A stretch of DNA of 64,000 nucleotides from an uncultured Gammaproteobacteria bacterium. GTDB taxonomy: Bacteria; Patescibacteriota; Microgenomatia; PFEM01; DATLAM01. Position numbers and translations under genes: made by a program. The notes under the pieces are model-generated. The model worked only from the letters and a program-made list of their open reading frames with translations, was not told where the DNA came from and did no database searches. The DNA is taken from positions 184-64,183 of the forward strand of contig CAZMIZ010000005.1 of the NCBI GenBank assembly GCA_964566925.1. The letters are read 5' to 3'. Positions 9,646-46,060 of the stretch are shown here, piece by piece (the stretch's first letter is position 1; each line of letters starts with the position of its first letter).

Positions 9646-9695
9646 AGTTTAAGTATGACAGATAAATCTGACGGCGTCAACTTGGCCCGCCTGAA

Positions 9696-9738
9696 CTTAC
9701 TTTTCGCCTTTTGGGTTCTATTCGAACACGGCTCAAAG
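9696..9738 (-). repeat. Copy (a) of the ~45-nt dispersed element; a near-exact inverted copy of the rRNA-spacer copy at 44234-44276
   Basis: cttacttttcgccttttgggttctattcgaacacggctcaaag(agcg) compared with the reverse complement of 44231-44276 (ccgctctttgagccgttttcgaatagaacccaaaggcgaaaagtaagg). Confidence 0.5.
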
Positions 9739-11119
9739 AGCGTTTTCCGGCGGGTTTGCGCCCTGTATCGAACTTTGTTCTGGTTCAGGGCTTGACAAAA
9801 AATGTCTTTTAGGCTAAAAAAAGACTACTTCTGCCCATTTTCCCTGCCTAAAATTGAGTCATTTTTCGATTCCTGCCTGGAGAGGAGTAAGAAATGCTTT
9901 TATGGGGAGCTTTTACCTTAGGTTTTTGTGTTGGCTCCATTCTTTTTTTTCATATCTTTGGCCAGGAGTATGAATAGTGGAAATTTTATAGGATTGTAAG
10001 ATCTTTAAATAATTAAGACCTGTAGTATTTAACTTATTAAATTCTTCAAGCTTAAGACAAGGCTCTCGTTTTTCTCAACTTTCACTAGTTTTAGAGAATG
10101 TTTGTCTTAGAATATTGTTCCGAGAATATCGGATTAAAGATAAAGATTTAAAAAAATCAGCCAAAATTATAGAAAACCAAAAACTAGATATTTTAATTTA
10201 TCTTAAATCATTTTTTGATATAGATTGAATAGGTGATTTTGGTCAAATTTTATAAAACTTAAATTTTATTTTTATAGGATAACAACTTTGAGTTAATTTT
10301 AGTCGACGAAATTTTCTTAATTTTTCGAAAGAGGAAAAAATAGACTATCAATTTAGGTCAAAAAGAGAATTAATATCTCAAAAAATAAAATAATAGAGCA
10401 ATAAGATTTTTAACCAAAAAAATGGACAAATTTAGTCAGTTTATTTTTTTTATTAAAATTAACAATTTTCTAGAATTTAATCCCCTTAATTGTTACTAGA
10501 AGATCTTTTATTTTCTAAATACTAAAATAAGTTGCCGGATTAAAAAAATTGATCTAAAAAAGTCCATTTTCGCCAAAGAGAGAATAGACCAGGAAATTTT
10601 ATTAATGGGGGCCTATTTTTGAAGAGTTTAATTGTTCATAATTCATTTTTTTATGGAAATATTTAGTTTTTCGTAGGTCAATTAAAGTGGCAATTTTTTT
10701 CAAAAAACAGCCCAAATCGTTTTCAATAAGCTTTTTTTGCTGAAATTTTTAGTATCCTCAGTCGTTAGTTTTTTGATCTTCTGACAGCCAATTTTTAGCT
10801 CTTTTTCGGACTAAACAGTTGAAATTATAGGACTTTTAAATAAAAGAAAAAAGAGATTAAAAAAAGAAAATAGGAAAGGGGTTTTTATTTTTGAAGAGTT
10901 TTCGATTTGGTTGATATCTAGACATTTTCATTCCCTCCGAAGTGCCCTAAAAGCCCGCTAAAAAGCCCCAAAATCGATTAAATTTTGTTTTGGGAGCACT
11001 AAAAAACTGATCTAAATTTGGCTGAAATTGCCTCTTGACAGAGAGTACCCGAATGATGGTAACATAAAAATAAACCTATAAGTATCTAATTATAAACAAG
11101 CCTTGGAGGGGAGAGGTTT

Positions 11120-14100
11120 GTGGCTAAAAACCTGCCCAGAGCGAAAAAACTTTCAATTCTCCTTTCTTTTATTTGGAAAAACCCTTCTTTTGGTTTAGAC
11201 CGGATTTCAATTGAACTTTCAATTGAACTTTCTGATAAAAAGGGCAGAAAAGTCTTTTCAAGAAGCGGAATTCAGAAAGCTTTAACCAGGCTCGGGTTAA
11301 ATACGACTAAAAAGAGGCGAGCTTGGGCAAGAGGGATAACTACCGCCGAAGCCGCAAAGAAGTTTGCTGAGCTGGTGGCAACCAAGTTTTCAGGGAGATT
11401 GACGCCTGAAAAGCGGTTAGAGATGATCAGGCTGGTTGAACAAAAAGAAATGACCGCTAGCCGGGCTGCTCAGGCCTGTGGAGTTTCCCGAAAAAGTTTC
11501 TATAAATGGCAAAAGCGCTATTTGGCTTCAGCTCCAGGTAGGGAATATCAAGCAGTTTGTGATCAAAAACCGGCTATTGAAAAACGCTGGAATCAATTAA
11601 CGAATAAGCAGGAAGAGGCCATTCTTAAAATCGTTCGGGAGCATCCAGATTATTCCACCCATAAAGTTGCGCAAATATTGGCAGATATCGGCAATCACGG
11701 AGTTCAGAACGCTTTTGAGAGGTTAAATCTTAATACCTACGAAAAACGCTTAGCCTATGCTCAAGCCCCTCAACCAGTTATCACTCCTGTTACAAGAGTG
11801 CTGGGTTGGTTTAAGTCACTCCTGGATAGAATTCCAGCTATTTCTCCTCTTCCTCCTCCAATCAAACAAAAAATTGCCACTTTAACTCATCCTTTTGCTT
11901 TTAGCCTCTTTTTTTCAATTGTTTTCTCCACTTTTTTTCTTTTTTGGTTTGATCTCATCATTCGGGCGCCCACTCTGAGTGCTAAACTTGGCTTTATTTT
12001 TGCTTCAGCTTCATTATTGGTTGGCGGGTTTTTCTTTATCTACTCAATGAAATACTACCTGACTCTAGCGATTGTTCTTTCTTTTTCTCGCCAAACCCAA
12101 GAAGAAAGGGGAGGCTACACCTTTAGCCTGAAAGGGAGAATGAATGGCCCCACTTCGCCAGGGGCTACGCGGGGTAACGGCAATAGTGGATGGTTGTTAA
12201 GAATCTTTGGTTTAGGAAACGGGAATGGCCCTGAAGAAAAGGGAAAGATAGTTCAGGCTGGTGGTCTTCAGCCTTCTTTAGATCACATTAAACTGAAGCG
12301 GTATCCTTTTGTTTCAATTCATCTGCCCTTCTTTAATGAAAAGAAGGTGGCGGAGAGGATTCTTAAAGCCTGTACGGCCATGGATTATCCCAGAGAGAGT
12401 TACGAAATTATTGTTTGTGATGATTCCAATGATGAGACTATTAATATTGTGCAAAGGTACGTAAAGAAGCACAACCAAACTCACCCCAAAGGGCCGAAGA
12501 TTAAGGTTCTTCATCGGCCCACCAGAGAGGGTTTTAAAGGTGGCGCCCTTTCTTATGCTTTGAAGAGCATGGATAAAAAGACGGAGTTCTGTGTGGTCTT
12601 TGATGCTGACTTTATCCCTTACCCAGACACTCTGGAACTGTTTGTCAAGTATTTCAAGGTGAACAATGGTCAGTCTGAGAACTACACCAGGGGCAAGATT
12701 GCCGTGGTGGGAGGTTATCAATGGCATGTTTTAAACAAATCAGAGAACTGGATCACCCGAGGAGTGAGAACGGAGTATGCTGGGAGCTACGTCATTGAAA
12801 GGCCTGGCAGAGAGATCTTGGGATTGCTAAAACAGATCTCTGGCTCAGTCTATATGATTAGAAGTGATGTCATCAAAAAGGTAGGCTGGGGTACGAGTAT
12901 TACTGAAGACTTCCAGTTAACCCTCAAGCTCTATGAGCAGGGCTACAAGGTGATCTACACCCCCTATGTTCAAGCCCCAGCCGAATGTGTTTCTACCCTG
13001 AAAAGGCTTATTAGACAACGGATGAGATGGGCCGAGGGACACAGCAACAATATTAGGAGGATGTTTTTACGACTCCTGGTTTCTCCTAAGTTGACTCTCA
13101 CAGAGAAACTAGAGCTTTTTTATCTTTCCCCTTACTATCTCCAGGCCGCCTTCTTCTTAGTCGGTACTTCCTGCTGGCTTTTAGCTGAGGCTGTTTTTAG
13201 GGTTAAGTTGCCTTTTTGGACCTCTCTTTGGGGCTGGTCTTTGGTTTTAACTAACTTTTTCTGTTTGCCCTTGGTGAATGCCGTGGGTTTGTTCCTAGAA
13301 GAAAGTGAAGAAAGAGACTATCTTGGTTTACTCTCTTTTATTTTTCTCTCCTACGTTCTCGTTCCCTTCCAGGCCTATGCTTCGGTAAAAGGCTTTCTGG
13401 AAAAAGAAGAAGGTCCTTGGTTTCGGACACCCAAGACAGGGAGGATTACCGACATCTTTACCCGGGGAAGATTCTACCGCTGGATTGCCGGAATTCTTCC
13501 AGGGAGAGGAGCTACCCCTGCCTATGCTGAGGCGACAACAGGGAAACAGCCCCCCAACTCTTATCTGGCTTTAGCGACAGCCAACAGTCAGTTTAGCTCT
13601 TTTGAAATCACGCCCAAGAGAAACCGCTTATGGGGTAAATTGGCGCTTTTGTTGGTGGCGGGAATCAGTTCAAGCCTTTCCTATTTTGGTAATCGGATTC
13701 CTCAGGGTGTGATTGCCAACCTGCCTATTCAAGCCAGAGTCGAGGTGGCTGGTTCTCAGCCTAGTTTCATAATAGATCAAGCCATTTTTTCTCAAATCCT
13801 TAGTCTGTTTAAGCCAAAGCAGGCCTTAGCAGTCACCTCTGGACTCAAGGATGCCCTTTTGGCTGGACAGCCAGTTTCCCTGGAGAACTTCAAAGGCTTG
13901 GCGCTTTTCTTAACTCTTTTAAGCTTGAGCCTTTTGGTTTATTTGCTAAAAAGAAAGAGAAGATTTGTTAAAAAACTTTTACGACCGGCTTTTGTGACCA
14001 CTCTTGTCTTAATATGGCTTTTGACCAGCTTTCCCCCTGTTTGGTTTACCCCTCGCTTTCCACCGAAAATTAAAAAAGCTCTGGCCTACGACTATGACGA

Positions 14101-16339
14101 GACTTATAGCTTTGATACTCTGGCGGCCAATGAAAACGATTTTATCTGGGATGGTCCGGACGTAGATGTTTTATCAGTAGAGAACACTGACGGTTCTTGG
14201 TGTTGGACAGATGTTGGCTCAACTTCAAGTAGCACCGGGCCGCCATCAGGAGTGGCCTGTGTTTATACGGAAACCTCATCACCAGTAGCCGTCGATGACG
14301 AGTTTTATATGACTCTTGCCGAGGCGAATGAAGTTAGTGCTACTACCTATGGTATCTATGTGACCTTCGATACCTGTACCTATGGCAATACATCAGCCCA
14401 TTTATATTTTGAAGCCTGGAATGGCTCTGGTTGGCAACCGATAGATGATTGGGCCGGTAATTCAACCACGACCTTTACATCTAGGGGTCCTTATGATTTT
14501 ACGGCATATAGCAATTCAGATTTTAGTATCAGGTTTCGAACTGTGGTAGCTGGGACGACATACACGAACGACATGGCCGTTGATGAGGTTCGAATTTATG
14601 GGGATTCGGCTAATGCTTCTCCGGCCGCCCCGACACTTCATAACGTTCCTTTTCCTAATGAAATGGTCTATGATACTACCCCTAACTTCGAATTTACCGG
14701 TTCGGACCCTGACGGCACGGCGGATATCATTTATCACATTCAAGTAGACGATGATCAGGCGTTTGGCAGCGTGATAGTTGAATGTGAATCAGATACCTCT
14801 TGTGCCACCGGCGATGGTGGTTTTACTAATACGGTGACTGGAGGTGATACTAGCCCGTTTAATGAGGGAGAAAAGATTAGATTTACGCCGACGACGACCC
14901 TTGCTAGTGGGACAACTTACTGGTGGCGAGTCAGGGCCGAGGATGATTCAGGCGGGGGTGGTTCAGGAAATTATGGTGATTGGACAACAGCCATTAGTTT
15001 CACCCCAAACTCTGGCTCTAGTCCTTATTCTGAGTGGTTCCAGACCACCGATGAACAGTTTGCTACTGGAACGCTGTCAGGCACAACGATAAGTGGATCG
15101 GATTCAGTAGAATTAGGCACCGCGATTACGGCCACTGGTGGGACAACCAGCGAATCAGGCGGTTACAAATTCCATACTTTTACCAGTAGTGGAACGTTTG
15201 AAGTGACGGCCGGATCAGGCGATGTTGAGGTGCTGGTGGTTGGTGGTGGCGCAGGAGGGGGGACCGGGGGAACCGCTAGCCGAGGTGGAGGAGGTGCTGG
15301 TGGGATTGTCTATGATTCAGCTTATGCTGTCGTAGTAGATACTTATACCGTGACAGTAGGCGTGGGGAGTGCCGGAGCGTCAGGCACCTCAACGGCGTCA
15401 GATAATGGAGGAGATTCAGTATTTGATGATTTGACTGCATTAGGTGGAGGAGGAGCAGGAATACATTTAGGCGTAGGAAAGGATGGTGGTTCTGGTGGTG
15501 GTGGTAGTGGTTGGTCCAGTACTGCGGGCGGTTCAGGTCTCCAGCCGGGATCAGCATCTGGGGGTTATGGTAATGATGGTGGGACTGCTAATAGCAATAG
15601 CGCTGCTCCTGGTGGTTCTGGTGGGGGAGGTGGAGCAGGGGCTACTGGTAGTAATGGTGCAGATGGCACAGGCGTGGGGGGCGCCGGAGGAGCCGGATTA
15701 GAGTTTTCTCAATTTAGCAGTGTCGGTGGTTCACCGGCTGGCTGGTTCGGTGGCGGTGGCGGTGGCGGAGCAGCCTCTGGAGGAACAGCTGGATCTGGTG
15801 GACAGGGAGGTGGAGGGGCTGGAGGAGCTGGAACAACTGGCAGTAATGGTGTAGCTAATACCGGTGGGGGTGGTGGTGGTTCAACAAGCACTGGTGGGTC
15901 TGGGGGTTCGGGAATTGTTATTATTAGATATCCTACTTCTGGTGGTTCTTCGGGTACTATCCAGTCAACTCAAATTGACTTTGGTTGGTTTAGTGGTTCA
16001 CCCTCGGATTGGAACGAAGTATATGTGGGGGTAACAACGACCAACGGCAGTATCACCATCGATATCCTGGATGAAAACGAATCTGATACTGGTTTAGGCT
16101 GCACTATTAGCGGTGGGAGTAGTTCTTGTACGGTTGATATTTCGAGTTTAGATCCTGCGGGGGATGAGACCCAAATTTACATTTTGGCGACGCTTAATGA
16201 TGTGAGCGGGACACCCTATCTTAATGACTGGTTAGTGTCTGTTCCGGAAAATTTATGGCTATTTTTCGGCTTAGGCCTTTTTTTACCAGGCTTTATTAGA
16301 CGGAGAAAAAGGAAATTATTAGAAAGATTAATTAAGTAA
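11120..16339 (+). CDS. Giant multidomain membrane protein with five parts: IS-transposase-like HTH N-terminus, processive family-2 glycosyltransferase, multi-TM region, Gly-rich ectodomain, and a C-terminal VPEN-TM-RRRKRK sorting-signal-like tail
   Basis: 1739-aa continuous ORF with a GTG start and GGAGGGGAGAGG RBS. The HTH region is ...SRAAQACGVSRKSFYKWQKRY. GT2 motifs are VCDDSND (DD), VFDADF (DAD), SITEDFQ (TED) and QRMRWAEGH (QxxRW). The C-terminal Gly-rich region ends in GSGIVIIRY, and the final tail is SVPENLWLFFGLGLFLPGFIRRRKRK. Confidence 0.75.
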   Translation: MAKNLPRAKKLSILLSFIWKNPSFGLDRISIELSIELSDKKGRKVFSRSGIQKALTRLGLNTTKKRRAWARGITTAEAAKKFAELVATKFSGRLTPEKRLEMIRLVEQKEMTASRAAQACGVSRKSFYKWQKRYLASAPGREYQAVCDQKPAIEKRWNQLTNKQEEAILKIVREHPDYSTHKVAQILADIGNHGVQNAFERLNLNTYEKRLAYAQAPQPVITPVTRVLGWFKSLLDRIPAISPLPPPIKQKIATLTHPFAFSLFFSIVFSTFFLFWFDLIIRAPTLSAKLGFIFASASLLVGGFFFIYSMKYYLTLAIVLSFSRQTQEERGGYTFSLKGRMNGPTSPGATRGNGNSGWLLRIFGLGNGNGPEEKGKIVQAGGLQPSLDHIKLKRYPFVSIHLPFFNEKKVAERILKACTAMDYPRESYEIIVCDDSNDETINIVQRYVKKHNQTHPKGPKIKVLHRPTREGFKGGALSYALKSMDKKTEFCVVFDADFIPYPDTLELFVKYFKVNNGQSENYTRGKIAVVGGYQWHVLNKSENWITRGVRTEYAGSYVIERPGREILGLLKQISGSVYMIRSDVIKKVGWGTSITEDFQLTLKLYEQGYKVIYTPYVQAPAECVSTLKRLIRQRMRWAEGHSNNIRRMFLRLLVSPKLTLTEKLELFYLSPYYLQAAFFLVGTSCWLLAEAVFRVKLPFWTSLWGWSLVLTNFFCLPLVNAVGLFLEESEERDYLGLLSFIFLSYVLVPFQAYASVKGFLEKEEGPWFRTPKTGRITDIFTRGRFYRWIAGILPGRGATPAYAEATTGKQPPNSYLALATANSQFSSFEITPKRNRLWGKLALLLVAGISSSLSYFGNRIPQGVIANLPIQARVEVAGSQPSFIIDQAIFSQILSLFKPKQALAVTSGLKDALLAGQPVSLENFKGLALFLTLLSLSLLVYLLKRKRRFVKKLLRPAFVTTLVLIWLLTSFPPVWFTPRFPPKIKKALAYDYDETYSFDTLAANENDFIWDGPDVDVLSVENTDGSWCWTDVGSTSSSTGPPSGVACVYTETSSPVAVDDEFYMTLAEANEVSATTYGIYVTFDTCTYGNTSAHLYFEAWNGSGWQPIDDWAGNSTTTFTSRGPYDFTAYSNSDFSIRFRTVVAGTTYTNDMAVDEVRIYGDSANASPAAPTLHNVPFPNEMVYDTTPNFEFTGSDPDGTADIIYHIQVDDDQAFGSVIVECESDTSCATGDGGFTNTVTGGDTSPFNEGEKIRFTPTTTLASGTTYWWRVRAEDDSGGGGSGNYGDWTTAISFTPNSGSSPYSEWFQTTDEQFATGTLSGTTISGSDSVELGTAITATGGTTSESGGYKFHTFTSSGTFEVTAGSGDVEVLVVGGGAGGGTGGTASRGGGGAGGIVYDSAYAVVVDTYTVTVGVGSAGASGTSTASDNGGDSVFDDLTALGGGGAGIHLGVGKDGGSGGGGSGWSSTAGGSGLQPGSASGGYGNDGGTANSNSAAPGGSGGGGGAGATGSNGADGTGVGGAGGAGLEFSQFSSVGGSPAGWFGGGGGGGAASGGTAGSGGQGGGGAGGAGTTGSNGVANTGGGGGGSTSTGGSGGSGIVIIRYPTSGGSSGTIQSTQIDFGWFSGSPSDWNEVYVGVTTTNGSITIDILDENESDTGLGCTISGGSSSCTVDISSLDPAGDETQIYILATLNDVSGTPYLNDWLVSVPENLWLFFGLGLFLPGFIRRRKRKLLERLIK
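12317..13071 (+). repeat. 755-bp block 100% identical to 20509-21263, inside the GT2 domains of the two giant paralogs
   Basis: Base-by-base identity against an offset of 8192 bp. Flanking sequence is only ~75-85% identical. The antisense ORFs 12314-12727 and 20413-20919 encode identical peptides as a by-product. Confidence 0.8.
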
Positions 16340-16347
16340 TACGTTTC

Positions 16348-16959
16348 ATGGAGTCTATGGGAAGCTATAAAAAGAAGAAAGCCGACCGTGTCGGCCAAAA
16401 GCTTACTTTTAAATTGCTATTGGTGGGATTAAGCCTGATCTTAATGGCTTTGCCTCTGGTGGCGGCTGGTAGCTCTTTCTTAACTGATTTTTTAAACCAC
16501 GCCAACTGGTATCAACCAATCCAAAAATATATAGTTCCTTTTGAAGCCAAGTTAGTCGCCGCGGCTATCTATCCTCTAGGGATTAAAAGCAGAGTTAGTC
16601 CCAGTCAAACCACAGTTGCTTTTTATATGATCAAAGAAGATTCAGTGGTCCCGGTCGATTTGGCTTGGAATTGTTTGGGCTGGCAAAGCATGCTTTTGTT
16701 AATCGTTTCCTTAATAGCCGGATTAAGAGGTAATTTTACCAATATTTCAAGGCTGGAATGTATTGTCTTTGGTTTTTTTGGCACCCTTTTAATTAATGTT
16801 TTCCGGATGAGCCTGGTAGCGGCTGGAATTTATTATATCAACACCTTCTTTGCTATGATTGTCCATGATTATCTAATGGCTTTAATGGCCATTGCCTGGC
16901 TGATTTTCTTCTGGTGGTTTAGCTATGCCTTTATTCTGGAGGAGAAAGTAGATAGTTAG
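16348..16959 (+). CDS. Exosortase/archaeosortase-family-like polytopic membrane protein (candidate processing enzyme for the VPE-CTERM tails)
   Basis: 203 aa with multiple TM helices. The NCLGWQSM motif (compare exosortase CSGLRSL, the active-site Cys) and LINVFRMSL motif (compare the conserved N..R) are present. The gene lies 8 nt downstream of giant gene 1. Confidence 0.5.
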   Translation: MESMGSYKKKKADRVGQKLTFKLLLVGLSLILMALPLVAAGSSFLTDFLNHANWYQPIQKYIVPFEAKLVAAAIYPLGIKSRVSPSQTTVAFYMIKEDSVVPVDLAWNCLGWQSMLLLIVSLIAGLRGNFTNISRLECIVFGFFGTLLINVFRMSLVAAGIYYINTFFAMIVHDYLMALMAIAWLIFFWWFSYAFILEEKVDS

Positions 16960-16999
16960 GCAATAGGCAGTAGGCAGTAGATTGTAGTAGGATAAAGTT

Positions 17000-17368
17000 A
17001 TGAAGATTAAGACTTATAAAGATCTAACTGTTTGGCAGAAGTCTTTTAAGTTAGCTCTTGAGGTTTATAAAGTTACCAAAAAATTTCCTAGATCAGAGCT
17101 TTACGGCCTGACTTCTCAAATAAGAAGGGCCGCTTTTTCTATTCCGTCTAACATTGCCGAAGGATATGCCCGTCATCGTTTAGCCGAATATATTCAGTTT
17201 TTAAGAATTGCCTTTGCTTCAGGTGCCGAACTTGAAACACAGTTGTTAATTGCTAAAGAAACAAACTTATTGAGGGGTAAAGATTTTCAACGACTAAACA
17301 GCCTTTTAAGTGAAGTCATGAAGATGCTTAACGTGTTAATGAAAAAACTAAAAGAGGCAAAACATTAA
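17000..17368 (+). CDS. Four-helix-bundle protein (TIGR02436; the family named '23S rRNA-intervening-sequence protein')
   Basis: 122 aa. Has the hallmark motifs DLTVWQKS...L, PRSELYGLTSQIRRAA.SIPSNIAEGY and ..Ar.SGAELETQL. Confidence 0.75.
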   Translation: MKIKTYKDLTVWQKSFKLALEVYKVTKKFPRSELYGLTSQIRRAAFSIPSNIAEGYARHRLAEYIQFLRIAFASGAELETQLLIAKETNLLRGKDFQRLNSLLSEVMKMLNVLMKKLKEAKH

Positions 17369-17417
17369 TGCCTAATCACTATTGCCTAATTAACTATTAT
17401 CTAGTGCCTAAATTCTA

Positions 17418-18857
17418 ATGCCTATTTATCCCGCCCAGACATCAATGATGACCATCCAGATTGCCTTGGCCCGCTTTTTAGAGCAGGGGGGTGATATTCT
17501 GGGCAATTATCCTTACTGGTATTTAGGAACGACTCCTTATCGCTATTTAACCGGCCCGATTTTACCTTTTCTCCTGGCTGGCATTCACCAAGCTCTACCC
17601 CAGCTTTCATTATTTACTATTTTCTATTTACTAATTACTCTTACCTGGTTATTGGGTGCCGGAGGAGTTTACTTGTTAATCAGAGAACTGAGGGGAAAGC
17701 GTCTTAGCGCCGTTCTCGCGGCCCTTCTTTATCTTTTTGGCCCAGTTATACCCTTGACCTTCCGTTTCTCTAACGGCCTTTCTCTAATAGCCTTTTCTTT
17801 TTTACCTTTTATCCTGGCTCTTTATTCGCGTTTCCTAAAAGGGTGGAGTCGGAAGCTAACTGCTCTTTTATCTTTGGCGATTACTTTTCTTTTCCTTTTA
17901 GATTCCCTGGTTATCCCCACCATGGTTTTAGGGATGGCCGCTGTTTTCCTAAGCCAAGTTGGCTGGAAAAAACCCGAGGAGAAGATAAAAAGAACCCTAG
18001 TCCCTATTGCCTATTGCCTAATCCTTGCTACCCTCTGGTACACCCCTGGCTATTGGCTGGCTCTTTTAGGGGCGCCTTCTTTAGCCGGTAAAGGATTGGG
18101 TGAGGTGATGATTTGGTTAGGCAAACTTCTGCCCACGATAATTGCTTTTAGCGTTGCCCTTGTTTCGGTTAAATTTTTCAAAAAGAAAAACCAGCTACGC
18201 GATTTTTGTTTTTATTGGCTTTTGGTATTTCTTTGCCTATCTTTGCTTAGGTTTTTGGCAGACCCTGATTTTTGGTTAGACTGGATTGCTTATGGCACCG
18301 AGATCCAGTTTGGCCTGGCAATAGCTCTGGCTTTGATTGTCCCTGCGCTCTTCTCAAAACTATTCACTCTTCGCTATTCACTCTTCGCTATTATCTTTGC
18401 CTATTGCCTAATGCCTATTGCCTGGCTATTTCTCTTTAACCAATATGTTCTTAGCACTCTCCAAACAGACATTACCCAAACAGTAGAGTACCGAATTAGC
18501 AAACAATTATCAGAGACTGCTGACCCTGGCGAGCGAGTCTTCTTATCTGGAACCACTGCTTTCTGGTTAAATGCTTTTCCTGCCAGCTGGCGGATTCCCC
18601 AGGTCCGAGGTGGGGTTGATCAAGCGTCAATTGACCCCGAATGGCGAAGAGCGACTTGGGAAATAAGAGAGGGGGTTGATCTTGAGAAAACTCTTGAATG
18701 GCTAAAAAAGCTTAGGGTTGCCTATGTTGTGGTTCATACCCCAGATTCAGAAGAGTTTTATCATGATTTTGTTTATCCGGAGAAGTTTGAGGGAGGAGAA
18801 GGGTTAGAAAAGATTTACGATCAAAACGGAGATAGAATCTACCGGGTAATGAATTGA
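17418..18857 (+). CDS. Polytopic membrane protein with a soluble C-terminal domain, possibly a GT-C-type glycosyltransferase
   Basis: 479 aa with more than 10 hydrophobic helices. Lies in the context of the glycan locus. The coding sequence contains reiterated cctattgcc motifs. Confidence 0.45.
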   Translation: MPIYPAQTSMMTIQIALARFLEQGGDILGNYPYWYLGTTPYRYLTGPILPFLLAGIHQALPQLSLFTIFYLLITLTWLLGAGGVYLLIRELRGKRLSAVLAALLYLFGPVIPLTFRFSNGLSLIAFSFLPFILALYSRFLKGWSRKLTALLSLAITFLFLLDSLVIPTMVLGMAAVFLSQVGWKKPEEKIKRTLVPIAYCLILATLWYTPGYWLALLGAPSLAGKGLGEVMIWLGKLLPTIIAFSVALVSVKFFKKKNQLRDFCFYWLLVFLCLSLLRFLADPDFWLDWIAYGTEIQFGLAIALALIVPALFSKLFTLRYSLFAIIFAYCLMPIAWLFLFNQYVLSTLQTDITQTVEYRISKQLSETADPGERVFLSGTTAFWLNAFPASWRIPQVRGGVDQASIDPEWRRATWEIREGVDLEKTLEWLKKLRVAYVVVHTPDSEEFYHDFVYPEKFEGGEGLEKIYDQNGDRIYRVMN

Positions 18858-18859
18858 AA

Positions 18860-19162
18860 TCATTTAATCAATCCGAAGATAATGGCTGAGGCGATGAGAA
18901 CAGCTACTAAGGAACTGATAATTGCCGCAACAACTAACTGATTGGCAATCGCCGATAATCTCTTGGCAGGAGTTTCTTTAGCTCCTTTGCGGGCTCCCAT
19001 TATTTCGTTAAGTTGCTTTTTGGTGTAATAGCGACGATTAGTCGGGGAGCGAATCGCTTTTATTTTTCCTCTTTTTCCCCAGCGCCGGAGAGTGTCTCGA
19101 GAGACACCAAGATATTTAGCGGCTTCACCGATGGAGACCCATTGAGCTTTATCTTCAGCCAT
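18860..19162 (-). CDS. Membrane-tethered excisionase/MerR-type HTH DNA-binding protein
   Basis: 100 aa. The HTH_17-like region is SIGEAAKYLGVSRDTLRRWGKRGKIKAIRSPTNRRYYTKKQL, followed by a C-terminal TM helix LVVAAIISSLVAVLIASAIIFGLIK. Divergent from giant gene 2. Confidence 0.6.
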   Translation of the reverse strand: MAEDKAQWVSIGEAAKYLGVSRDTLRRWGKRGKIKAIRSPTNRRYYTKKQLNEIMGARKGAKETPAKRLSAIANQLVVAAIISSLVAVLIASAIIFGLIK

Positions 19163-19243
19163 AATTTCCTATTTTTGCCTAAATAAATTTTTAGAAATTA
19201 TTTAGCTTTGCCTATTTTTAAGGATAAGTTAAAAAATAGTCTT

Positions 19244-19269
19244 TGTCAAGGCGAAAATGACCCTTGACA
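19244..19269. promoter_or_regulatory. Perfect 8-bp inverted repeat TGTCAAGG-N10-CCTTGACA overlapping a TTGACA -35-like hexamer, between the HTH gene and giant gene 2
   Basis: tgtcaaggcgaaaatgacccttgaca. A candidate operator for the adjacent HTH protein. No clean -10 box could be found. Confidence 0.3.
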
Positions 19270-19395
19270 TTATATATCCAGGTAATGTTAACATGAGAAA
19301 ATAAGACTAGCAAAGATATGCAAAGGTCTTAAAGTGTTTACATTAAGCCTGCCCTGGGACTAGTCAGCCGAGTCAGGCAGGAATAGGGAAAGTCC

Positions 19396-22300
19396 GTGCC
19401 CGCCAAACTTAATAAGAAAGAAAGATTAAGACTCATTGAACGAGTAATCATTAAGGGCGAACCAGTTACTAAGGTTTGTCAAGAAGCTAAAATTTCTCGA
19501 ACTCTTTTTTATCGTTGGCTGAAACGCTACTCGGCTGAAGGAAAAGTTACTTCTAGAGCTCCAGGGAGGCCTATTAAAAAAACTCCTCCTAAAATCAAGA
19601 AAAAGATAACTCCATTTAAAAAACTTTCTCCTCAAAAAAAGCTAGAAATGGTGGAGCAGGTGGTCAAATACCATCAACCGGTTAGTAAGGTTTGTCTCGA
19701 TTTTCGTCTCTCCAGACCCAGCCTCTATAAATGGCTTAAACGCTATCATTTGGCCCAGAAAGATAAAAAACTTGAGGCCATGGAGGATAAGAAACCGCAA
19801 ATAAGTCGTTATTCCCGCCAAACTCCAGCAATGTATGAAAAAGTTGTTCTAGATGCGGTGGCTCAACACCCTCAACTTGGAGTTAAAAGAATTCTTGAAG
19901 TTTTACCAAGAATTGCCGATAAACCCATCATCGGCTATCATGGGGTACAAAACATCCTTCGTCGGCATGATTTAAACACCTTTCAAAAGCGATTAGATTA
20001 TGCTCAAACTCAAATCACGCCGGTAACTAGGCTTATCTCATTTTTTGAAGAACTTGGCGCTCGCTTCATTGTTTTGCCAGCTGAGACTCGAACTAAGACA
20101 ATTAGATTTGCGGCGATAGCTCTTTTGACTACTTTTTCGACCATTTTTGTTTTAGGGGTTCTAGGCCATTTTGCCATCATTGTCGGTGCCGCTCCAATTC
20201 CGTCCCGAATTGGGCTTTTTCTGGCGACAAGCGCCCTTTTAATTGGTTCTTTCTTTTTTGCTTATTCGATTAAATATTACTTGACCTTAGCGGTGGTTCT
20301 TTCTTTTTCCCGCCAAGCAGGAGAGGAGGGAATGGGAATTGGTTTGAAAACTGAAATTAAAAAGACTAGCCGCGATTTGCCAGCTAGCGGCTGGCTTCAA
20401 AAAATATTTGGGCTAGGGAATGGAGAAGAAAGGCAGGAAACGATTCAAGCTGGAGGTCTTCAGCCTTCTTTGGATCATATCAAGCTGAAGCGGTATCCCT
20501 TTGTTTCGATTCATCTGCCCTTCTTTAATGAAAAGAAGGTGGCGGAGAGGATTCTTAAAGCCTGTACGGCCATGGATTATCCCAGAGAGAGTTACGAAAT
20601 TATTGTTTGTGATGATTCCAATGATGAGACTATTAATATTGTGCAAAGGTACGTAAAGAAGCACAACCAAACTCACCCCAAAGGGCCGAAGATTAAGGTT
20701 CTTCATCGGCCCACCAGAGAGGGTTTTAAAGGTGGCGCCCTTTCTTATGCTTTGAAGAGCATGGATAAAAAGACGGAGTTCTGTGTGGTCTTTGATGCTG
20801 ACTTTATCCCTTACCCAGACACTCTGGAACTGTTTGTCAAGTATTTCAAGGTGAACAATGGTCAGTCTGAGAACTACACCAGGGGCAAGATTGCCGTGGT
20901 GGGAGGTTATCAATGGCATGTTTTAAACAAATCAGAGAACTGGATCACCCGAGGAGTGAGAACGGAGTATGCTGGGAGCTACGTCATTGAAAGGCCTGGC
21001 AGAGAGATCTTGGGATTGCTAAAACAGATCTCTGGCTCAGTCTATATGATTAGAAGTGATGTCATCAAAAAGGTAGGCTGGGGTACGAGTATTACTGAAG
21101 ACTTCCAGTTAACCCTCAAGCTCTATGAGCAGGGCTACAAGGTGATCTACACCCCCTATGTTCAAGCCCCAGCCGAATGTGTTTCTACCCTGAAAAGGCT
21201 TATTAGACAACGGATGAGATGGGCCGAGGGACACAGCAACAATATTAGGAGGATGTTTTTACGGTTAATGTTGGGAAGGGAAAAGAGAGATGGTCAAGGA
21301 CGGAAAACTGGTTGGATTCCCAGCCCTTTAACTTTAGGAGAGAAACTAGAGCTTCTTTATTTAACTCCTTATTATCTTCAGGCTTTTTTCTTTTTGGCGG
21401 GGACCCTCTCCTGGCTTTTAGCCGAAGCTGTTTTTAGGGTTAAGTTGCCTTTTTGGACCTCTCTTTGGGGGTGGTCTTTGGTTTTAACCAACTTCTTTTG
21501 TTTACCTCTGGTCAATGCGGTTGGTTTGTTCTTAGAAGAGAGCGAGGAAAGAGATTACTTAGGTATCTTTTCGTTTACCATTCTTTCTTACGTTTTAGTT
21601 CCTTTCCAGGCCTATGCCTCAGTTAAAGGTTTTCTAGAGAAGGAAGAAGGACCCTGGTTTCGGACGCCTAAAACGGGAAGAATTACCGATATCTTTACCC
21701 GAGGGAGATTTTATAGATGGATTGCCGGGATCTTGCCGGGGAGAGGAGCTGTCCCTGCCTATGCTGAGGCAACAACGGAGAAACATCTCTCTAACTCTTA
21801 TCTAGCCTTAGCAACCGCTAACCATCGCTTTAACTCTTTTGAGATTAGGCCCAAGAGAAACCGCTTTTGGGGTAAGTTGGCCCTTTTTTTGGTGGTAGCC
21901 ATCAATTCCCTTCTTTCTTTTTTTGGTAACCAGATTCCTCAGGGAGCAATCACCAATCTGCCTATCCAAGCGAGAGTGGAAGTGATTAGTTCCCAGCCTA
22001 GCCTACCAATCAATCAGGCTACTCTTTCCCAAATCCTTAGCCTGTTTAAACCAAGACAAGCCTTGGCGGCTACCTCTGGTCTTAAGGAGGCTCTTTTAGC
22101 TGGTGAGCCGGTTTCCTTGGAGAACTTCAAAGGCTTGGTTCTTTTCTCAACCCTTTTAAGCTTAAGTTTTTTGATTTATTTGGCCAGAAAGAAAAGAACC
22201 TTTGTCAAAAAACTTTTGCGGCCGATTTTTGTTTTTGTTTTGGTTGCCTCCTGGCTTCTAACCAGTTTTCCGGCTATTTGGTTTAACCCCCGTTTCCCTC

Positions 22301-24828
22301 CGAAAATTAAAGAAGTTGAAGCGACTGATTATGACGATGTAGTTTTAGCCACCAATGGGGGGCCTGATTACAGAATCCAATTTAACGGCAATATTACTGA
22401 AGAAATTAAGAGTCAAGGAACTTCAGGGGCCCCGGATAGTTACGTGACCAACATTATTCCCAACGATGATGGACAATGCGCAGATTATGCCGCTTCGGCA
22501 GAAACGGTTATTACTAATGCGAGCGATGTTAACAGTAGTACCACCACCAGAAAAACAGTTTCTTTTTGGGTGGAAATTGACACCTTTGGAACAGGTACAG
22601 GCTCTAATGCCAGAAACATCTGGGAAGAGGGAGGGGCAACAAATTGGTTCGGCGCCTACACGGCCAACAATGATGAACTTTATATCATTATCGGTGAGAG
22701 TGGTGCCAATAAAGGGTATTGTTATACTGACGGATTGTCAACCGGAACACTTTATCATGTGGTGATGCAATGGCAGGGGTCTGATGACGCGATGGAATTA
22801 TGGATCAACGGCTCTTTAGTTGATTCTACTACCGCCTCAATAGGTTCAGAGTTAAGTTCGCATACCGGAGACTGGGAAATTGGCGGCAATGCTGAGTCTT
22901 TCGACCACACCGACACTGACATCGGCCTACTATTTGACGGAAAAATAGCTGACTACTCTTACTGGGCGGAGGCAGCCGATTTTTTAACGGAAGCGGAAAT
23001 CGTGGCTATTTATGAAGCCGGGGCAGTGGTTGCCCCCTCCGCCCCGACTCTTTATAACGATGACGGCGGCTCCAATCAAATCGCTTTTAATAATATTAGG
23101 GAGAATGATACTTCCCCCATTATCCGGGCTTCAGCCACCCACGATACCACCTTTAATACTTTTTTCGTCGAATTTAACACTGCCTCAGATTTCAGCGGGA
23201 CGGCTTACACCGAAACCTTCTCTGGGACTTACTCATCAGGGACTGCCTACAATCTCCAAACCACTGGTTCTTTAAATTTGCCCTCAAACGACGGAGTGAC
23301 TTATTACGTTCGTGTTAAGGCTTCGGATGATGGGGGGACTGATTATGGTGATTGGTCAACGACTTTGGCCTGCTGTGGCACCTGGACTTATACGTATACT
23401 AGTTCAGCTGGAGATTCTGAGTGGCTTCAAACAACCGATGAGCAGTTCGACACAGGGACGATGGTATCGACGCAAACAAGCGGTTCTGATTCGGTGGAAA
23501 TAGTGGGAAGCGAGACGACTATTTATCTTACTTCTGGTACGACTTGGAATGTGCCAGCTGACTGGAATTCGTCTAATAATACTATTCGCGCAATCGGAGC
23601 AGGTGGAGACGGGGGTTTGTCTACTGCGAGTTCTAATTCTGGTGGCGGTGGGGGTGGTGGTGAATATCGGGCGGCAACCAACGTCACTCTGACACCTAGT
23701 TCAACGGTGGACATTAATATTCCCTCTGGTGGAGATGGCAGCTCTGCTGATGGTGCCTGGATCGAAAACAATAGCGATACTATTGTAGTTGAAGCTAAGA
23801 ATGGTGGTAATGCTTCAGGTACCACCGCTGGTAGTGGCGGAACAGGCGGAACCGGAACAGCCGCAAATTATGATGGCGGTGCTGGAGGTGCAGGTGCTTC
23901 TAATTCAACAGCGTCAGGCGGTGGGGGTGGCGGCTCGGCAGGACCGAGCGGAGCAGGTAAAGCAGGCGGCGATGGTGTTGGTTCTACTAACTATGGTGCT
24001 GGAGGAGGTGGCGGCAGTAATGGTGGATCTTCAACTGTCGGTGAAACACCAACCGGCCCTGACGGCGGGGATGGAGGTGTAGGTACTGGCGGCACTGGTG
24101 GAGGCGCTGGTGGAGTTGAACATACAAGTGGCGGCTCTAATGGAACTGATGGCGGCGGCGGTGGCGGCGGCGCTGATACTCAGTCAAGTACTCCTTCCCC
24201 AGGTGGTAATGGTGCTTGCGACACTGCTTGGGACTCAACTCATGGAGCCTGCGGCGGTGGTGGTGGCGGCGGTGGCGCCAGTGGAACTGCTGGCACTGCT
24301 GATAGAGACGGAGGAACAGGCGGAACTTATGGAGGCGGCGGTGGCGGCTGCGGCATATCAGGTTCCTTAGATACCGGAGAATGCGATGGCACTGGAGTAG
24401 GTGGTCAGGGGATTATCGTAATCACCTATACTCCTGATGCTTCAAGCGGCACGATTATGTCGCCGGAAATTGACTATGACTGGTTTGATGGGGCTTCAGC
24501 CTGGAATGATGTTTACTGGAGCGAGGATGAAACCCATGGAACGATTATGGTTCAGGTTTATTACAATGATTGCGGCACGATTATTCCTGATGAAGATTTA
24601 AGCGGCAATTCCAGTGGATTTACCACTGGTCCGATTGACATCTCCGGTCTTTCTACTTCGACTTATAATGAAATTTGCTTCAAAGCCACTTTAGCCGATT
24701 CCGGGGGGAGTCCCTATCTCGAAGATTGGGGGGTGAGTGTCCCAGAAAGCTTATGGCTGTTTTTTGGCTTGGGCCCTTTTTTACCATTTGTGTCCAGGTT
24801 AAAAAGAAAGAGAAGAAAAAAGTTGTGA
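19396..24828 (+). CDS. Second giant paralog: two transposase-like HTH repeats, a processive GT2, a multi-TM region, LamG/ConA-like plus Gly-rich ectodomains, and a VPES-TM-KRKRRKK tail
   Basis: 1810 aa with a GTG start. HTH repeats are ..ISRTLFYRWLKRY and ..LSRPSLYKWLKRY. The GT2 core is identical to paralog 1 over 755 bp. The LamG-like region is TVSFWVEID...MELWINGSLVDS. The Gly-rich region ends in GQGIIVITY, and the tail is SVPESLWLFFGLGPFLPFVSRLKRKRRKKL. Confidence 0.75.
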   Translation: MPAKLNKKERLRLIERVIIKGEPVTKVCQEAKISRTLFYRWLKRYSAEGKVTSRAPGRPIKKTPPKIKKKITPFKKLSPQKKLEMVEQVVKYHQPVSKVCLDFRLSRPSLYKWLKRYHLAQKDKKLEAMEDKKPQISRYSRQTPAMYEKVVLDAVAQHPQLGVKRILEVLPRIADKPIIGYHGVQNILRRHDLNTFQKRLDYAQTQITPVTRLISFFEELGARFIVLPAETRTKTIRFAAIALLTTFSTIFVLGVLGHFAIIVGAAPIPSRIGLFLATSALLIGSFFFAYSIKYYLTLAVVLSFSRQAGEEGMGIGLKTEIKKTSRDLPASGWLQKIFGLGNGEERQETIQAGGLQPSLDHIKLKRYPFVSIHLPFFNEKKVAERILKACTAMDYPRESYEIIVCDDSNDETINIVQRYVKKHNQTHPKGPKIKVLHRPTREGFKGGALSYALKSMDKKTEFCVVFDADFIPYPDTLELFVKYFKVNNGQSENYTRGKIAVVGGYQWHVLNKSENWITRGVRTEYAGSYVIERPGREILGLLKQISGSVYMIRSDVIKKVGWGTSITEDFQLTLKLYEQGYKVIYTPYVQAPAECVSTLKRLIRQRMRWAEGHSNNIRRMFLRLMLGREKRDGQGRKTGWIPSPLTLGEKLELLYLTPYYLQAFFFLAGTLSWLLAEAVFRVKLPFWTSLWGWSLVLTNFFCLPLVNAVGLFLEESEERDYLGIFSFTILSYVLVPFQAYASVKGFLEKEEGPWFRTPKTGRITDIFTRGRFYRWIAGILPGRGAVPAYAEATTEKHLSNSYLALATANHRFNSFEIRPKRNRFWGKLALFLVVAINSLLSFFGNQIPQGAITNLPIQARVEVISSQPSLPINQATLSQILSLFKPRQALAATSGLKEALLAGEPVSLENFKGLVLFSTLLSLSFLIYLARKKRTFVKKLLRPIFVFVLVASWLLTSFPAIWFNPRFPPKIKEVEATDYDDVVLATNGGPDYRIQFNGNITEEIKSQGTSGAPDSYVTNIIPNDDGQCADYAASAETVITNASDVNSSTTTRKTVSFWVEIDTFGTGTGSNARNIWEEGGATNWFGAYTANNDELYIIIGESGANKGYCYTDGLSTGTLYHVVMQWQGSDDAMELWINGSLVDSTTASIGSELSSHTGDWEIGGNAESFDHTDTDIGLLFDGKIADYSYWAEAADFLTEAEIVAIYEAGAVVAPSAPTLYNDDGGSNQIAFNNIRENDTSPIIRASATHDTTFNTFFVEFNTASDFSGTAYTETFSGTYSSGTAYNLQTTGSLNLPSNDGVTYYVRVKASDDGGTDYGDWSTTLACCGTWTYTYTSSAGDSEWLQTTDEQFDTGTMVSTQTSGSDSVEIVGSETTIYLTSGTTWNVPADWNSSNNTIRAIGAGGDGGLSTASSNSGGGGGGGEYRAATNVTLTPSSTVDINIPSGGDGSSADGAWIENNSDTIVVEAKNGGNASGTTAGSGGTGGTGTAANYDGGAGGAGASNSTASGGGGGGSAGPSGAGKAGGDGVGSTNYGAGGGGGSNGGSSTVGETPTGPDGGDGGVGTGGTGGGAGGVEHTSGGSNGTDGGGGGGGADTQSSTPSPGGNGACDTAWDSTHGACGGGGGGGGASGTAGTADRDGGTGGTYGGGGGGCGISGSLDTGECDGTGVGGQGIIVITYTPDASSGTIMSPEIDYDWFDGASAWNDVYWSEDETHGTIMVQVYYNDCGTIIPDEDLSGNSSGFTTGPIDISGLSTSTYNEICFKATLADSGGSPYLEDWGVSVPESLWLFFGLGPFLPFVSRLKRKRRKKL
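20509..21263 (+). repeat. Partner of the 755-bp identical block at 12317-13071
   Basis: See 12317-13071. Confidence 0.8.
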
Positions 24829-24843: not shown

Positions 24844-26166
24844 ATGGCTATTAAAAAATCTTTTAATTATCCAGAGAAAGAGGAAACTCTGGCTATTAAG
24901 CAGGAAGAAAGAATTCGCCGGTTTTATCATCTTCGCCGGCGATTAGCAAAATTTTCGCCTCGAGGTTGGGTGGTCGTCTTAGAATTTGTCGGTTTGATCG
25001 GCCTATTTTTCACCAGCCTTTGGCTGCTCCTTCCTTTTTTTGGCCGGCCAGATCAGATTAATGTTTTTTCAGCTCCAGTGGTTCCGCTTTTGGTTAGTTT
25101 AACCGAAAAATTAATTCCCTTTTCGTACGGAGTGAGAATTTGGTTGCTGGCTTTTCTGGCCCTTTTCCCTCTTTCCTTTTATTACTTCGTCCGAGAGATT
25201 TCCAGTCGAAAATTGATTGGTTTTATCTCGAGCTTTATTGTGATTCTTCCTTTTGGAGTTTTTCTGCCTATCAGAGTTAATCTTAGTCTTTTAGCCCAAG
25301 ATGGTGCTCATATGACCTCGCTGGCTTTTACCCCCTTAGTTTGTCTTCTTTTAGTTCGCTTCTTACGTCAAGGCGGTTTTTGGACAGGGGTTCTCTCTGC
25401 TTTTGGAACGACTTTGGTAGCCCTTACTTCTCCAATTGGCTTCGTGGTTCTCGCTCTTTTTATGGGGGTGGTCACTTTTTCGGAGATGCTTTTGGGTCAA
25501 GGGAGATTAAAGATCTTGAGATTTTTGGTGGTTCTGATTTTGGCGGTTGGTTTTTCCGCTTTTTGGTATAATCCCCAATTCGCTCTTTTGACCTTACAAT
25601 CTCCTCAGGGTCAACTTTTAAAAAAAACACTTTCTAATCTTCTGCCGGTTTCTTTTTTCCTCTTACCCATTTTAGGTGTTTTTGGCTTTTTACTTTTTGA
25701 GAATCGGCCCCAGCTTCAACCGATGTTTATTGCTTTTTTCTTAACTATTGGCTTTGGCCTTTTTTCTATTGGGGCTGGCGTGGCCCATCCTTCACCATCG
25801 CGTTTTTTACCAGCCTTTGGTATTTCCCTGGCTTTTTTGCTGGGGATTTTAGTCACCGCTTTTTATGATTTTCTCCGGGCTTCGCCTAAACTTAAAAAAT
25901 TTAAAATCCCCACTTTTAGGCGGCAGTTAGCCGCTTTTGGTTTAATCTTCTTAGTTTTTACCTCTATTTTTATCATGATCACCGCTTTTAGCCAAAATCT
26001 CTGGGGGCTTGAAGAGTCTCGGGTTTTAGGCCTAACCGCGGAGCAAAAAGTGGGCGTTTGGGACATTAAAGAGAAAACTGGTTTAGTAGAAAGCGTTTTT
26101 GGCTACTTGATTACCAGTTTGACGGCCGCAGGCGTCATTATTTTAAAGTCAAGACTGGGAATTTAA
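24844..26166 (+). CDS. Polytopic membrane protein (~12 TM), possibly a GT-C-type glycosyltransferase or polymerase
   Basis: 440 aa and highly hydrophobic. First gene of the glycan locus. Confidence 0.45.
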   Translation: MAIKKSFNYPEKEETLAIKQEERIRRFYHLRRRLAKFSPRGWVVVLEFVGLIGLFFTSLWLLLPFFGRPDQINVFSAPVVPLLVSLTEKLIPFSYGVRIWLLAFLALFPLSFYYFVREISSRKLIGFISSFIVILPFGVFLPIRVNLSLLAQDGAHMTSLAFTPLVCLLLVRFLRQGGFWTGVLSAFGTTLVALTSPIGFVVLALFMGVVTFSEMLLGQGRLKILRFLVVLILAVGFSAFWYNPQFALLTLQSPQGQLLKKTLSNLLPVSFFLLPILGVFGFLLFENRPQLQPMFIAFFLTIGFGLFSIGAGVAHPSPSRFLPAFGISLAFLLGILVTAFYDFLRASPKLKKFKIPTFRRQLAAFGLIFLVFTSIFIMITAFSQNLWGLEESRVLGLTAEQKVGVWDIKEKTGLVESVFGYLITSLTAAGVIILKSRLGI

Positions 26167-42380: not shown

Positions 42381-43849
<1,469 letters not shown>

Positions 43850-44011
43850 AGGAGTTGTTCGGCCCCGCGGAGCTTTATGCGAAGTGGGGGAAACACCCCG
43901 AGATTTTGTTAATTTTGCTCGCTAACTAAAATTGACATCTTCCTACCACTTCCTGGTTGTTGAGAACTGTAGTTAATTTACAAATAGTTCGAAATCCTGC
44001 CAAAATTGCTC

Positions 44012-44051
44012 CTTGAGCCGTTTTCGAATAGAACCCAAAGGCGAAAGGTAA
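44012..44051 (+). repeat. Copy (c) of the ~45-nt element
   Basis: cttgagccgttttcgaatagaacccaaaggcgaaaggtaa. Confidence 0.5.
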
Positions 44052-44078
44052 AATTAGTAGGATCAAGAGAACAAAGAG

Positions 44079-44100
44079 TCCGCCACATGGCGGATTTTTT
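44079..44100 (+). terminator. Hairpin-family copy 2 plus T-run (terminator- or processing-like) between 16S and tRNA-Ile
   Basis: tccgccacatggcgga followed by tttttt. Confidence 0.35.
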
Positions 44101-44127
44101 GTATTTATGATAAAATTAAGGTGATCT

Positions 44128-44199
44128 GGGCACGTAGTTCACTGGTAGAACGCTTACCTGATAAGTAAGAAGTAGATGGTTCGATTCCATCCGTGCCCA
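44128..44199 (+). tRNA. tRNA-Ile (anticodon GAT)
   Basis: The cloverleaf was folded by hand: acceptor GGGCACG/CGTGCCC, D-stem GTTC/GAAC, anticodon stem CTTAC/GTAAG with loop CTGATAA, and T-arm GATGG-TTCGATT-CCATC. Confidence 0.8.
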
Positions 44200-44233
44200 C
44201 AAGGAGGTCTCAGGCCTGCCCCGTCAAACCGCT

Positions 44234-44276
44234 CTTTGAGCCGTTTTCGAATAGAACCCAAAGGCGAAAAGTAAGG
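44234..44276 (+). repeat. Copy (d) of the ~45-nt element, followed by a tRNA-3'-half-like fragment ending in CCA (44277-44309)
   Basis: ctttgagccgttttcgaatagaacccaaaggcgaaaagtaagg followed by ...acggggttcgaatcctgaacggcccacca. Confidence 0.5.
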
Positions 44277-44407
44277 TTATACGGGGTTCGAATCCTGAAC
44301 GGCCCACCATTGAGATAAGGTAGGACGTGGCAAATTAGGCACTTTTTGAAAGAAAGACCAAGAAAACTTCTTGTAACTTTTTAAAAAGGGGAGTATAATT
44401 TAATCAA

Positions 44408-45148: not shown

Positions 45149-45250
45149 GCTAGGCACTCTCGCTCTTTCCTTCAGTAAGTTTTTCATTATAATAGTAAGT
45201 TTCAACAGCGATTGAAAGACTGGGCGATTTTTAGTAAAATTATCTGAGAG

Positions 45251-45742: not shown

Positions 45743-45781
45743 AAAAGAGAGCGATTTCTTAGGGGTTTATTTTAACTTTGC

Positions 45782-45810: not shown

Positions 45811-45816
45811 GAGCCT

Positions 45817-45947: not shown

Positions 45948-46000
45948 TAATTGTCCTTTAAAAAATATATAAATAGCCAATTACCCACCAAAGACCGCTC

Positions 46001-46042: not shown

Positions 46043-46060
46043 TCGGGCGGGTAGGATTCC

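Follow-up and report, generated by a model that had tools for sequence, protein, structure and literature searches.

Probable recent gene conversion between the catalytic cores of two giant tandem glycosyltransferase genes in a Patescibacteriota genome

Results

Two giant tandem paralogs sharing a block of exact identity

The stretch of DNA analysed here, referred to as the window, comprises 64,000 nucleotides (nt) of contig CAZMIZ010000005.1 (assembly GCA_964566925.1, positions 184 to 64,183 of the forward strand), which was deposited as originating from an uncultured Gammaproteobacteria bacterium and is assigned in GTDB to the Patescibacteriota (Microgenomatia; PFEM01; DATLAM01). It harbors two giant genes in tandem, here named A and B, whose predicted products are membrane proteins with a catalytic core of glycosyltransferase family 2 (GT2). 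Within this core the two genes share 755 nt without a single difference, very probably because the core of one copy was recently pasted over that of the other by gene conversion. The features concerned are listed below, with lengths in amino acids (aa) and with the evidence, including the list of open reading frames (ORFs), in brackets.

11120..16339, + strand: giant gene A, 1739 aa (ORF list, translation, Pfam, NCBIfam)
19396..24828, + strand: giant gene B, 1810 aa, built on the same general plan as its tandem paralog A (ORF list, translation, Pfam, NCBIfam)
12317..13071, + strand: copy 1 of the 755-nt block, in gene A (exact identity; synonymous divergence, dS, of 0 over 158 synonymous sites; permutation P<5e-5)
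20509..21263, + strand: second copy of the block, within gene B (exact identity)

When the window was compared with itself, 12317-13071 and 20509-21263 were found to be identical at 755/755 nt (0 mismatches), both copies being on the + strand, 8192 nt apart and in frame within their giant ORFs. The run ends sharply, in that adding one base on either side breaks the match, and the window is free of N. The block corresponds to residues 400-651 of A, that is, to the GT2 catalytic core, and its translation contains the motifs VCDDSND, FDADF (DAD), ITEDF (TED) and QRMRW. In the nearest relatives, the corresponding nucleotides diverge from it by 25-29%.

Two peculiarities of the block were followed up. 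The offset of 8192 nt equals 2^13 and might be taken for a data-handling artefact, an explanation that was rejected because the adjoining shoulder (12221-12316), which does contain true substitutions, is displaced from its partner by the same 8192 nt; the spacing is the natural homologous offset of the gene pair, and the number a coincidence. An antisense ORF overlapping the block (20413-20919, corresponding to 12314-12727 in A) was considered as a cause of nucleotide conservation and dismissed as spurious, since it is open in only 28/117 homologs; in the extension of A its frame is broken by stops. With so few homologs keeping this frame open, and with nearest relatives as different in the block as indicated above, a functional constraint on the block at the nucleotide level is unsupported.

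Architecture and family of the giant proteins

In A, the parts follow one another in the order of N-terminal transposase-type helix-turn-helix (HTH) domains, a transmembrane (TM) part, a processive-type GT2 core, a second TM part, a large extracellular region that includes Gly_rich_2 and, at the C-terminus, a tail that is hydrophobic and basic. The N-terminal domains were recognised by the Pfam models HTH_23, HTH_28 and HTH_Tnp_1, all of transposase type, and the Pfam match to Gly_rich_2 was found in the C-terminal part of A. The first residue of B is GTG-encoded. Matches of the core to Glyco_tranf_2_3, Glycos_transf_2 and Glyco_trans_2_3 were all above the respective Pfam cut-offs, and the D, DxD, TED and QxxRW motifs lie between TM helices, which is the arrangement that defines processive synthases of the GT2 fold. 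The closest solved structure by sequence is the cellulose synthase BcsA (7lby_A, E 3.6e-9). Among NCBIfam models the best were PgaC_IcaA (85.5 bits, cut-off 422) and CelA (74, cut-off 699), with NodC at 23 (cut-off 550), so that no equivalog-level match to PgaC, CelA or NodC was obtained in NCBIfam, the scores lying far under the cut-offs. From their sequences, A and B would be processive-type GT2 synthases outside any characterised equivalog.

The family is large, with at least 1400 proteins at E<=1e-50 in a search of 5.8 billion proteins, and those of its members that have a taxon label are mostly labelled Patescibacteria, Microgenomates, Woesebacteria, Gottesmanbacteria and Daviesbacteria. 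Many of them carry the Joint Genome Institute (JGI) name 'cellulose synthase/poly-beta-1,6-N-acetylglucosamine synthase-like glycosyltransferase/transposase'. Look-ups of exact protein matches to A, to B (with either form of its first residue) and to the 479-aa protein encoded downstream of A gave no hit. The closest proteins in the search of 5.8 billion were at most 76% identical, and the best matches among genome and metagenome contigs were at most 80% identical in amino acids over the best-matching segment. Across the family the core is 70-86% identical and the extracellular C-terminal parts are hypervariable; the C-terminal 740 aa of A are without a match in any relative. As a separate observation, contigs carrying this typically Patescibacteria gene (loci of relatives are numbered with the prefix L; here L001, L007, L027 and many CA* loci) have been deposited as metagenome-assembled genomes (MAGs) of Bathyarchaeia, Nitrosopolaris, 'uncultured Gammaproteobacteria', Chloroflexi or Dormiibacterota, which suggests mis-binning or default taxonomic labels.

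Divergence along the gene pair

A and B were compared by means of a protein-guided codon alignment, with an identity profile in 30-codon windows and Nei-Gojobori estimates of divergence, and three further features were delimited in this way.

12221..14078, + strand: older homogenised segment in A of ~1.86 kb, with its partner at 20416-22315 in B (blastn, codon profile, Nei-Gojobori, neighbour-joining bootstrap)
12254..12316, + strand: left shoulder of 21 codons, with its partner at 20446-20508 (8 synonymous differences, with a proportion of synonymous differences, pS, of 0.51 and dS 0.86; 0 non-synonymous differences; offset 8192)
21271..21315, + strand: insertion of 45 nt (15 codons) in B relative to A (codon alignment at 13076/21268)

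Outside the block but within the core (12221-14078 against 20416-22315) nucleotide identity is 77.3%, with 249 differences over 1096 sites. Upstream of ~12221 A and B are unalignable, the N-terminal third and the C-terminal 40% being at 33-50% nucleotide identity in most of the 30-codon windows, and the C-terminal tails (16208-16288 against 24706-24786) are 76.5% identical in nucleotides. The first-pass annotation of the window had claimed 100% identity over 755 bp between the paralogs, coverage of the DAD, TED and QRMRW core by the identical block, ~75-85% identity in the GT2-TM region outside it, and highly diverged N- and C-terminal parts, and in all these respects it described the pair correctly.

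The contrast is sharpest at synonymous sites. In the block there are 0 differences over 158 synonymous and 0 over 595 non-synonymous sites, whereas the sequence adjoining it has a pS of 0.51-0.63, the downstream core (13088-14100) has a dS of 1.06-1.25 with a non-synonymous divergence (dN) of 0.09-0.16, the N-terminal and upstream TM parts have a pS of about 0.79 (0.80 at most; saturated) with a dN of 0.56-0.73, and the C-terminal part has a pS of 0.74 (saturated) with a dN of 0.68. The upper bound on dS in the block, given 0 differences over its synonymous sites, is ~2%, which is less than ~1/50 of the divergence of the adjacent core. In stretches outside the block where amino acid identity is 100%, third-position identity is just 40-70%, and thus constraint at the protein level does not hold nucleotides identical in these genes. 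The absence of any synonymous change over 755 nt therefore points to a recent common ancestry of the two stretches.

A Sawyer-type (GENECONV-like) permutation was carried out in which the 249 differences were shuffled over the 1851 ungapped sites of the core in 20000 trials. The longest identical run in the permuted data had a mean of 42 nt and a maximum of 108, compared with the 755 nt observed (P<5e-5), and at the flank identity of 77.3% the chance of 755 consecutive matches is ~1e-84. A chance origin of the block is excluded.

Conflicting trees and the age of the duplication

Neighbour-joining trees with 200 bootstraps were built per segment, namely for the part upstream of the block, the block itself, and the part downstream of it (residues 657-830 of A). 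A clade of A and B received a bootstrap of 0% upstream, and of 100% in both the block and the downstream segment. Upstream of the block the two genes fall into different old clades, A grouping with L002/L042 and B with L001/L040. The closest relatives of A are there L002, L041 and L042 (56% over 160 aa, rising to 66% in the 85 best-conserved residues) and those of B are L001 and L040 (51-54% aa), whereas A and B are only 42-47% identical in amino acids and stand at rank 21-30 for one another among about 80-113 homologs. In the block, by contrast, they are mutually nearest (100% against 86% for the best other), as they are over the next 170 residues (88% against 83%).

Each giant gene is followed by a gene for a membrane protein:

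17418..18857, + strand: multi-pass membrane protein of 479 aa, encoded after A (without a match in Pfam or NCBIfam)
24844..26166, + strand: multi-pass membrane protein of 440 aa, encoded after B (without a match in Pfam or NCBIfam; distant paralog of 17418-18857)

The two membrane proteins are just 24% identical (E 1e-7), from which it would follow that a multi-gene module was duplicated long ago.

Recurrence in related genomes

Tandem pairs of this gene are common among relatives, and were found at L003, L004, L007, L008, L009, L018, L026, L048, L055, L079, L087 and L095. In the pairs of L055, L004 and L007 the partners are sisters in the block (100% bootstrap) with a support of 0-10% for the pair upstream, where their copies are distributed over the two old clades to which A and B belong. 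The synonymous divergence of the block between partners covers a wide range. It is 0.00 (pS) for A and B, 0.12 for L055, 0.33 for L007, 0.43 for L018, 0.53 for L009, 0.55-0.62 for L095, L026 and L004, and 0.68-0.83 for L003, L008, L087, L048 and L079. The N-terminal pS is 0.68-0.91 in the measurable pairs, L095 (0.58) being the sole exception.

In L055, an independent JGI metagenome contig, the copies share exact runs of 452, 95, 40, 110 and 95 nt, the first of which corresponds to 12443-12841 of the window and was assembled within one contig. A further case comes from the MAG JACQLA01, a groundwater Microgenomates genome assembled with MEGAHIT at k=141, in which L033:1-141 and L037:1-141 (JACQLA010000008.1 and JACQLA010000007.1) are identical, lie inside this gene, and then diverge. 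Contig ends shared over 141 nt are what a de Bruijn assembler would be expected to produce where paralogs contain an exact repeat, and indicate such a repeat here. Many contigs of relatives end inside the gene; as there was no null model for such ends, only the clean case of L033 and L037 was used. Taken at the level of the sequences, conversion of the core appears to be recurrent and lineage-independent in this family, with the window as its most recent example.

In one further sample, Ga0111213 contig 107 (L040) has a copy of B type and contig 101 (L042) one of A type, and the two are sisters in the block and downstream trees. Conceivably they form a further concerted pair whose members ended up on separate contigs.

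Discussion

Gene conversion and its rivals

The identity of the two blocks, the pattern of dS along the genes, the phylogenetic incongruence and the recurrence in relatives are direct observations, and we consider it very probable that they reflect a recent gene conversion in which the catalytic core of one copy replaced that of the other. The first-pass annotation had already read the block as the product of recent intragenomic recombination or gene conversion, with an assembly collapse as the alternative, and had suggested a GENECONV-type test and a comparison of related loci. The former proved highly significant, the latter revealed tandem partners that are closest to each other only in the GT2 core, and the reading is now supported by the permutation, the dS pattern, the tree conflict and the recurrence. 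Its picture of a single tract has to be amended: whereas the recent 755-nt tract stands, there was not one event only, since this tract is nested in the older homogenised segment, which argues for repeated concerted evolution rather than for a single event.

The sequence of events could then have been as follows. A module encoding a giant HTH-GT2 membrane protein together with a second, multi-pass one would have been duplicated in tandem in ancient times. Later, homologous recombination between the direct copies would have transferred the GT2/TM core repeatedly and non-reciprocally, presumably through RecA-dependent repair of a break or gap with the other copy as a template. An older event would have homogenised the ~1.86 kb at 12221-14078, and a very recent one the 755 nt (12317-13071) nested towards its 5′ end. 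Some 60-95 nt of homology remain beyond the left end of the recent tract, and since the left shoulder shares the offset while having 8 synonymous differences, this end can be placed within the older homology. The right end (13071/13072) is located 7 nt before the 45-nt insertion in B and a divergent linker. Extension of the heteroduplex may have been blocked at this indel and linker, and thus the 45-nt heterology probably stopped the conversion tract. Purifying selection would keep the core similar enough to recombine, while the diverged HTH and extracellular ends could not pair. Since only the core can pair, conversion would keep striking the same region in different lineages without any special function, and the two genes would end up as mosaics whose cores evolve in concert while their ends diverge.

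Some points weigh against gene conversion as told here. The exact identity of the two copies is that of the assembled sequence, in which the assembler had to cross an exact repeat of 755 nt. The RecA pathway and the terminating role of the indel are borrowed from general knowledge of bacterial recombination. Amino acid identities to the block in the relatives (86% for L001, 82% for L041/L042, 81% for L040, 81% for L039 and 80% for L002) are separated by a margin too small for naming the donor copy, and the lineages of L002, L039, L040, L041 and L042 have conversions of their own in the trees, which complicates donor inference.

One could suppose that the assembly, or its polishing, wrote one sequence twice through a collapsed repeat, a popped bubble, gap filling or multi-mapped reads. 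An exact identity of 755 nt does resemble a collapsed repeat placed twice by a scaffolder, the comparison was made on assembled sequence, and the assemblies of relatives do break within this gene. However, collapse or cross-polishing requires near-identical copies, and at just 77% identity the adjoining homologous sequence is too diverged for cross-mapping; the change from 100% to the level of the flanks is abrupt; independent contigs hold partly homogenised cores of various ages, including the 452-nt exact run in one contig; and the window is long, contiguous and N-free, with a complete rRNA operon. We therefore regard such an artefact as unlikely. It could at most have turned near-identity into exact identity, hiding a few real differences, and because copies that are ~77% identical cannot be homogenised by an artefact, a recent conversion tract is needed either way. 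A different view would be that the duplication itself is recent and that the ends have since diverged very fast, under positive or relaxed selection, with the block being what has not yet changed. While the shared unusual architecture, the similarity of the C-terminal tails and the apparently fast evolution of the C-terminal extracellular parts, where so much of A is without a match in relatives, would be in line with young duplicates, selection on proteins cannot yield the contrast between a pS of 0.74-0.80 in the ends and zero in the block. Moreover, upstream A and B are each nearer to copies in other genomes than to each other, and the low identity of their duplicated membrane-protein neighbors does not fit a young module, so that we give this view hardly any credence.

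It could also be that the identity is functional, the core serving as a recombination handle by which variable ends are swapped or deleted, in a shuffling reminiscent of antigenic variation, or by which the 8.2-kb unit is deleted or amplified in a phase-variable manner. Direct repeats of 755 nt at a distance of 8192 nt lend themselves well to unequal crossover, hypervariable extracellular C-termini are joined to a core that is 70-86% identical, and homogenised cores occur in several lineages. Nevertheless, no sign was seen of reciprocal exchange or alternative junctions, nor of specific sites or a recombinase dedicated to them, the antisense ORF overlapping the block lacks conservation, and the pairs of L003, L008, L079, L087 and L048 are without homogenisation, as would be expected of a passive and sporadic process; a functional handle is thus very improbable. 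Related to it is the speculation, also to be given little weight, that recurrent homogenisation is exploited, with populations of an episymbiotic type forming chimeric giant glycosyltransferases (the N-terminus of A with the C-terminus of B) or deleting and amplifying the 8.2-kb unit. If true, it would amount to an envelope diversity akin to phase or antigenic variation in a lineage of tiny genomes, and the unit affected includes an exosortase-like gene.

With gene conversion as the preferred explanation, the pair offers a clean case of partial concerted evolution, in which the core is kept identical within genes of ~1,750 aa while a regulatory-looking N-terminus and an extracellular C-terminus diverge freely, and this process seems to have operated separately in a number of Patescibacteria lineages, in a family that is very abundant. 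There are practical consequences. Trees of this GT2 domain will falsely suggest lineage-specific recent duplications; the repeat accounts for breaks of MAG contigs in this gene, short reads being unplaceable there; and deletion or amplification variants are to be expected at the repeat.

Surroundings of the gene pair

Between the paralogs, and within the 8192-nt repeat unit, lies the exosortase-like gene referred to above:

16348..16959, + strand: 203-aa ORF matching the signature of the exosortase/archaeosortase family (TIGR04178, 24.8 bits, cut-off 23)

In translation, A and B share the C-terminal sequence VPE[NS]LWLFFGLG.FLP, after which comes a basic cluster. None of the curated models of C-terminal sorting signals in NCBIfam matched the tails of the giant proteins; judged by their sequence, the tails and the 203-aa ORF may be a PEP-CTERM-type sorting signal with its sortase.

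Upstream of gene A, 1.47 kb (9646-11119) are without an ORF of at least 50 aa and have a GC content of 22-30%, compared with about 42-46% around. This AT-rich region contains, at 9710-9757, an inverted copy of a ~50-nt repeat family (74-89% identity) whose other members, at 44003-44056, 44226-44279 and 45992-46045, flank tRNA-Ile and precede tRNA-Ala in an rRNA spacer. The rRNA operon in question is complete (42381-49626: 16S, tRNA-Ile, tRNA-Ala, 23S, 5S) and has an unusual gap of 1.86 kb between its spacer tRNAs, containing a 246-aa ORF (44408-45148). Since the match to the 23S model covers 3052 nt and the model itself has 2925 positions, the 23S may carry an insertion.

Comparison with known systems

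Paralogs that evolve in concert are known in bacteria, as in the case of tufA and tufB of Salmonella. At the level of titles and abstracts, ectopic gene conversion and concerted evolution are also documented for the rRNA operons of E. coli (PMC8022953; review PMC6002687), and gene conversion for PE_PGRS and other repeat-family genes of Mycobacterium tuberculosis (PMC1762029, PMC12046097, PMC13061034). Among the titles and abstracts retrieved from the literature, none dealt with gene conversion in Patescibacteria or with this HTH-GT2 family. A and B resemble the rRNA operons, PE_PGRS and tuf genes in having a non-reciprocal tract of several hundred bases between paralogs of one genome, with sharp edges, erased synonymous sites and a tree of the tract that conflicts with that of the flanks, as well as in the recurrence in related lineages and the trouble caused to short-read assembly and mapping. 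They differ from these in that homogenisation affects only a catalytic stretch in the interior of a very large multidomain gene whose ends are saturated, and in that the host belongs to an uncultured lineage of Patescibacteria with small genomes.

As enzymes, A and B are like BcsA, PgaC/IcaA and NodC in that the GT2 of the block has the D, DxD, TED and QxxRW motifs with TM helices on both sides, but unlike them they are fused to an N-terminal transposase-type HTH part and to an extracellular glycine-rich C-terminal part of 700-800 aa. Surface and toxin genes can vary by way of conserved handles, as do pilE/pilS of Neisseria, vlsE of Borrelia and the orphan tips of Rhs/CdiA. With these systems A and B have in common a segment conserved in neighboring copies, the other parts being highly variable and probably surface-exposed. 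However, in A and B the homogenised part is the catalytic core and not a handle beside silent cassettes, both are full-length genes, and there is no evidence of programmed or frequent switching. The mechanism would thus be the classical one of ectopic gene conversion, which is already known, and A and B appear to be a new instance of it rather than a new mechanism; what is specific here is that it concerns an internal catalytic segment of giant multidomain genes and that it recurs across Patescibacteria lineages.

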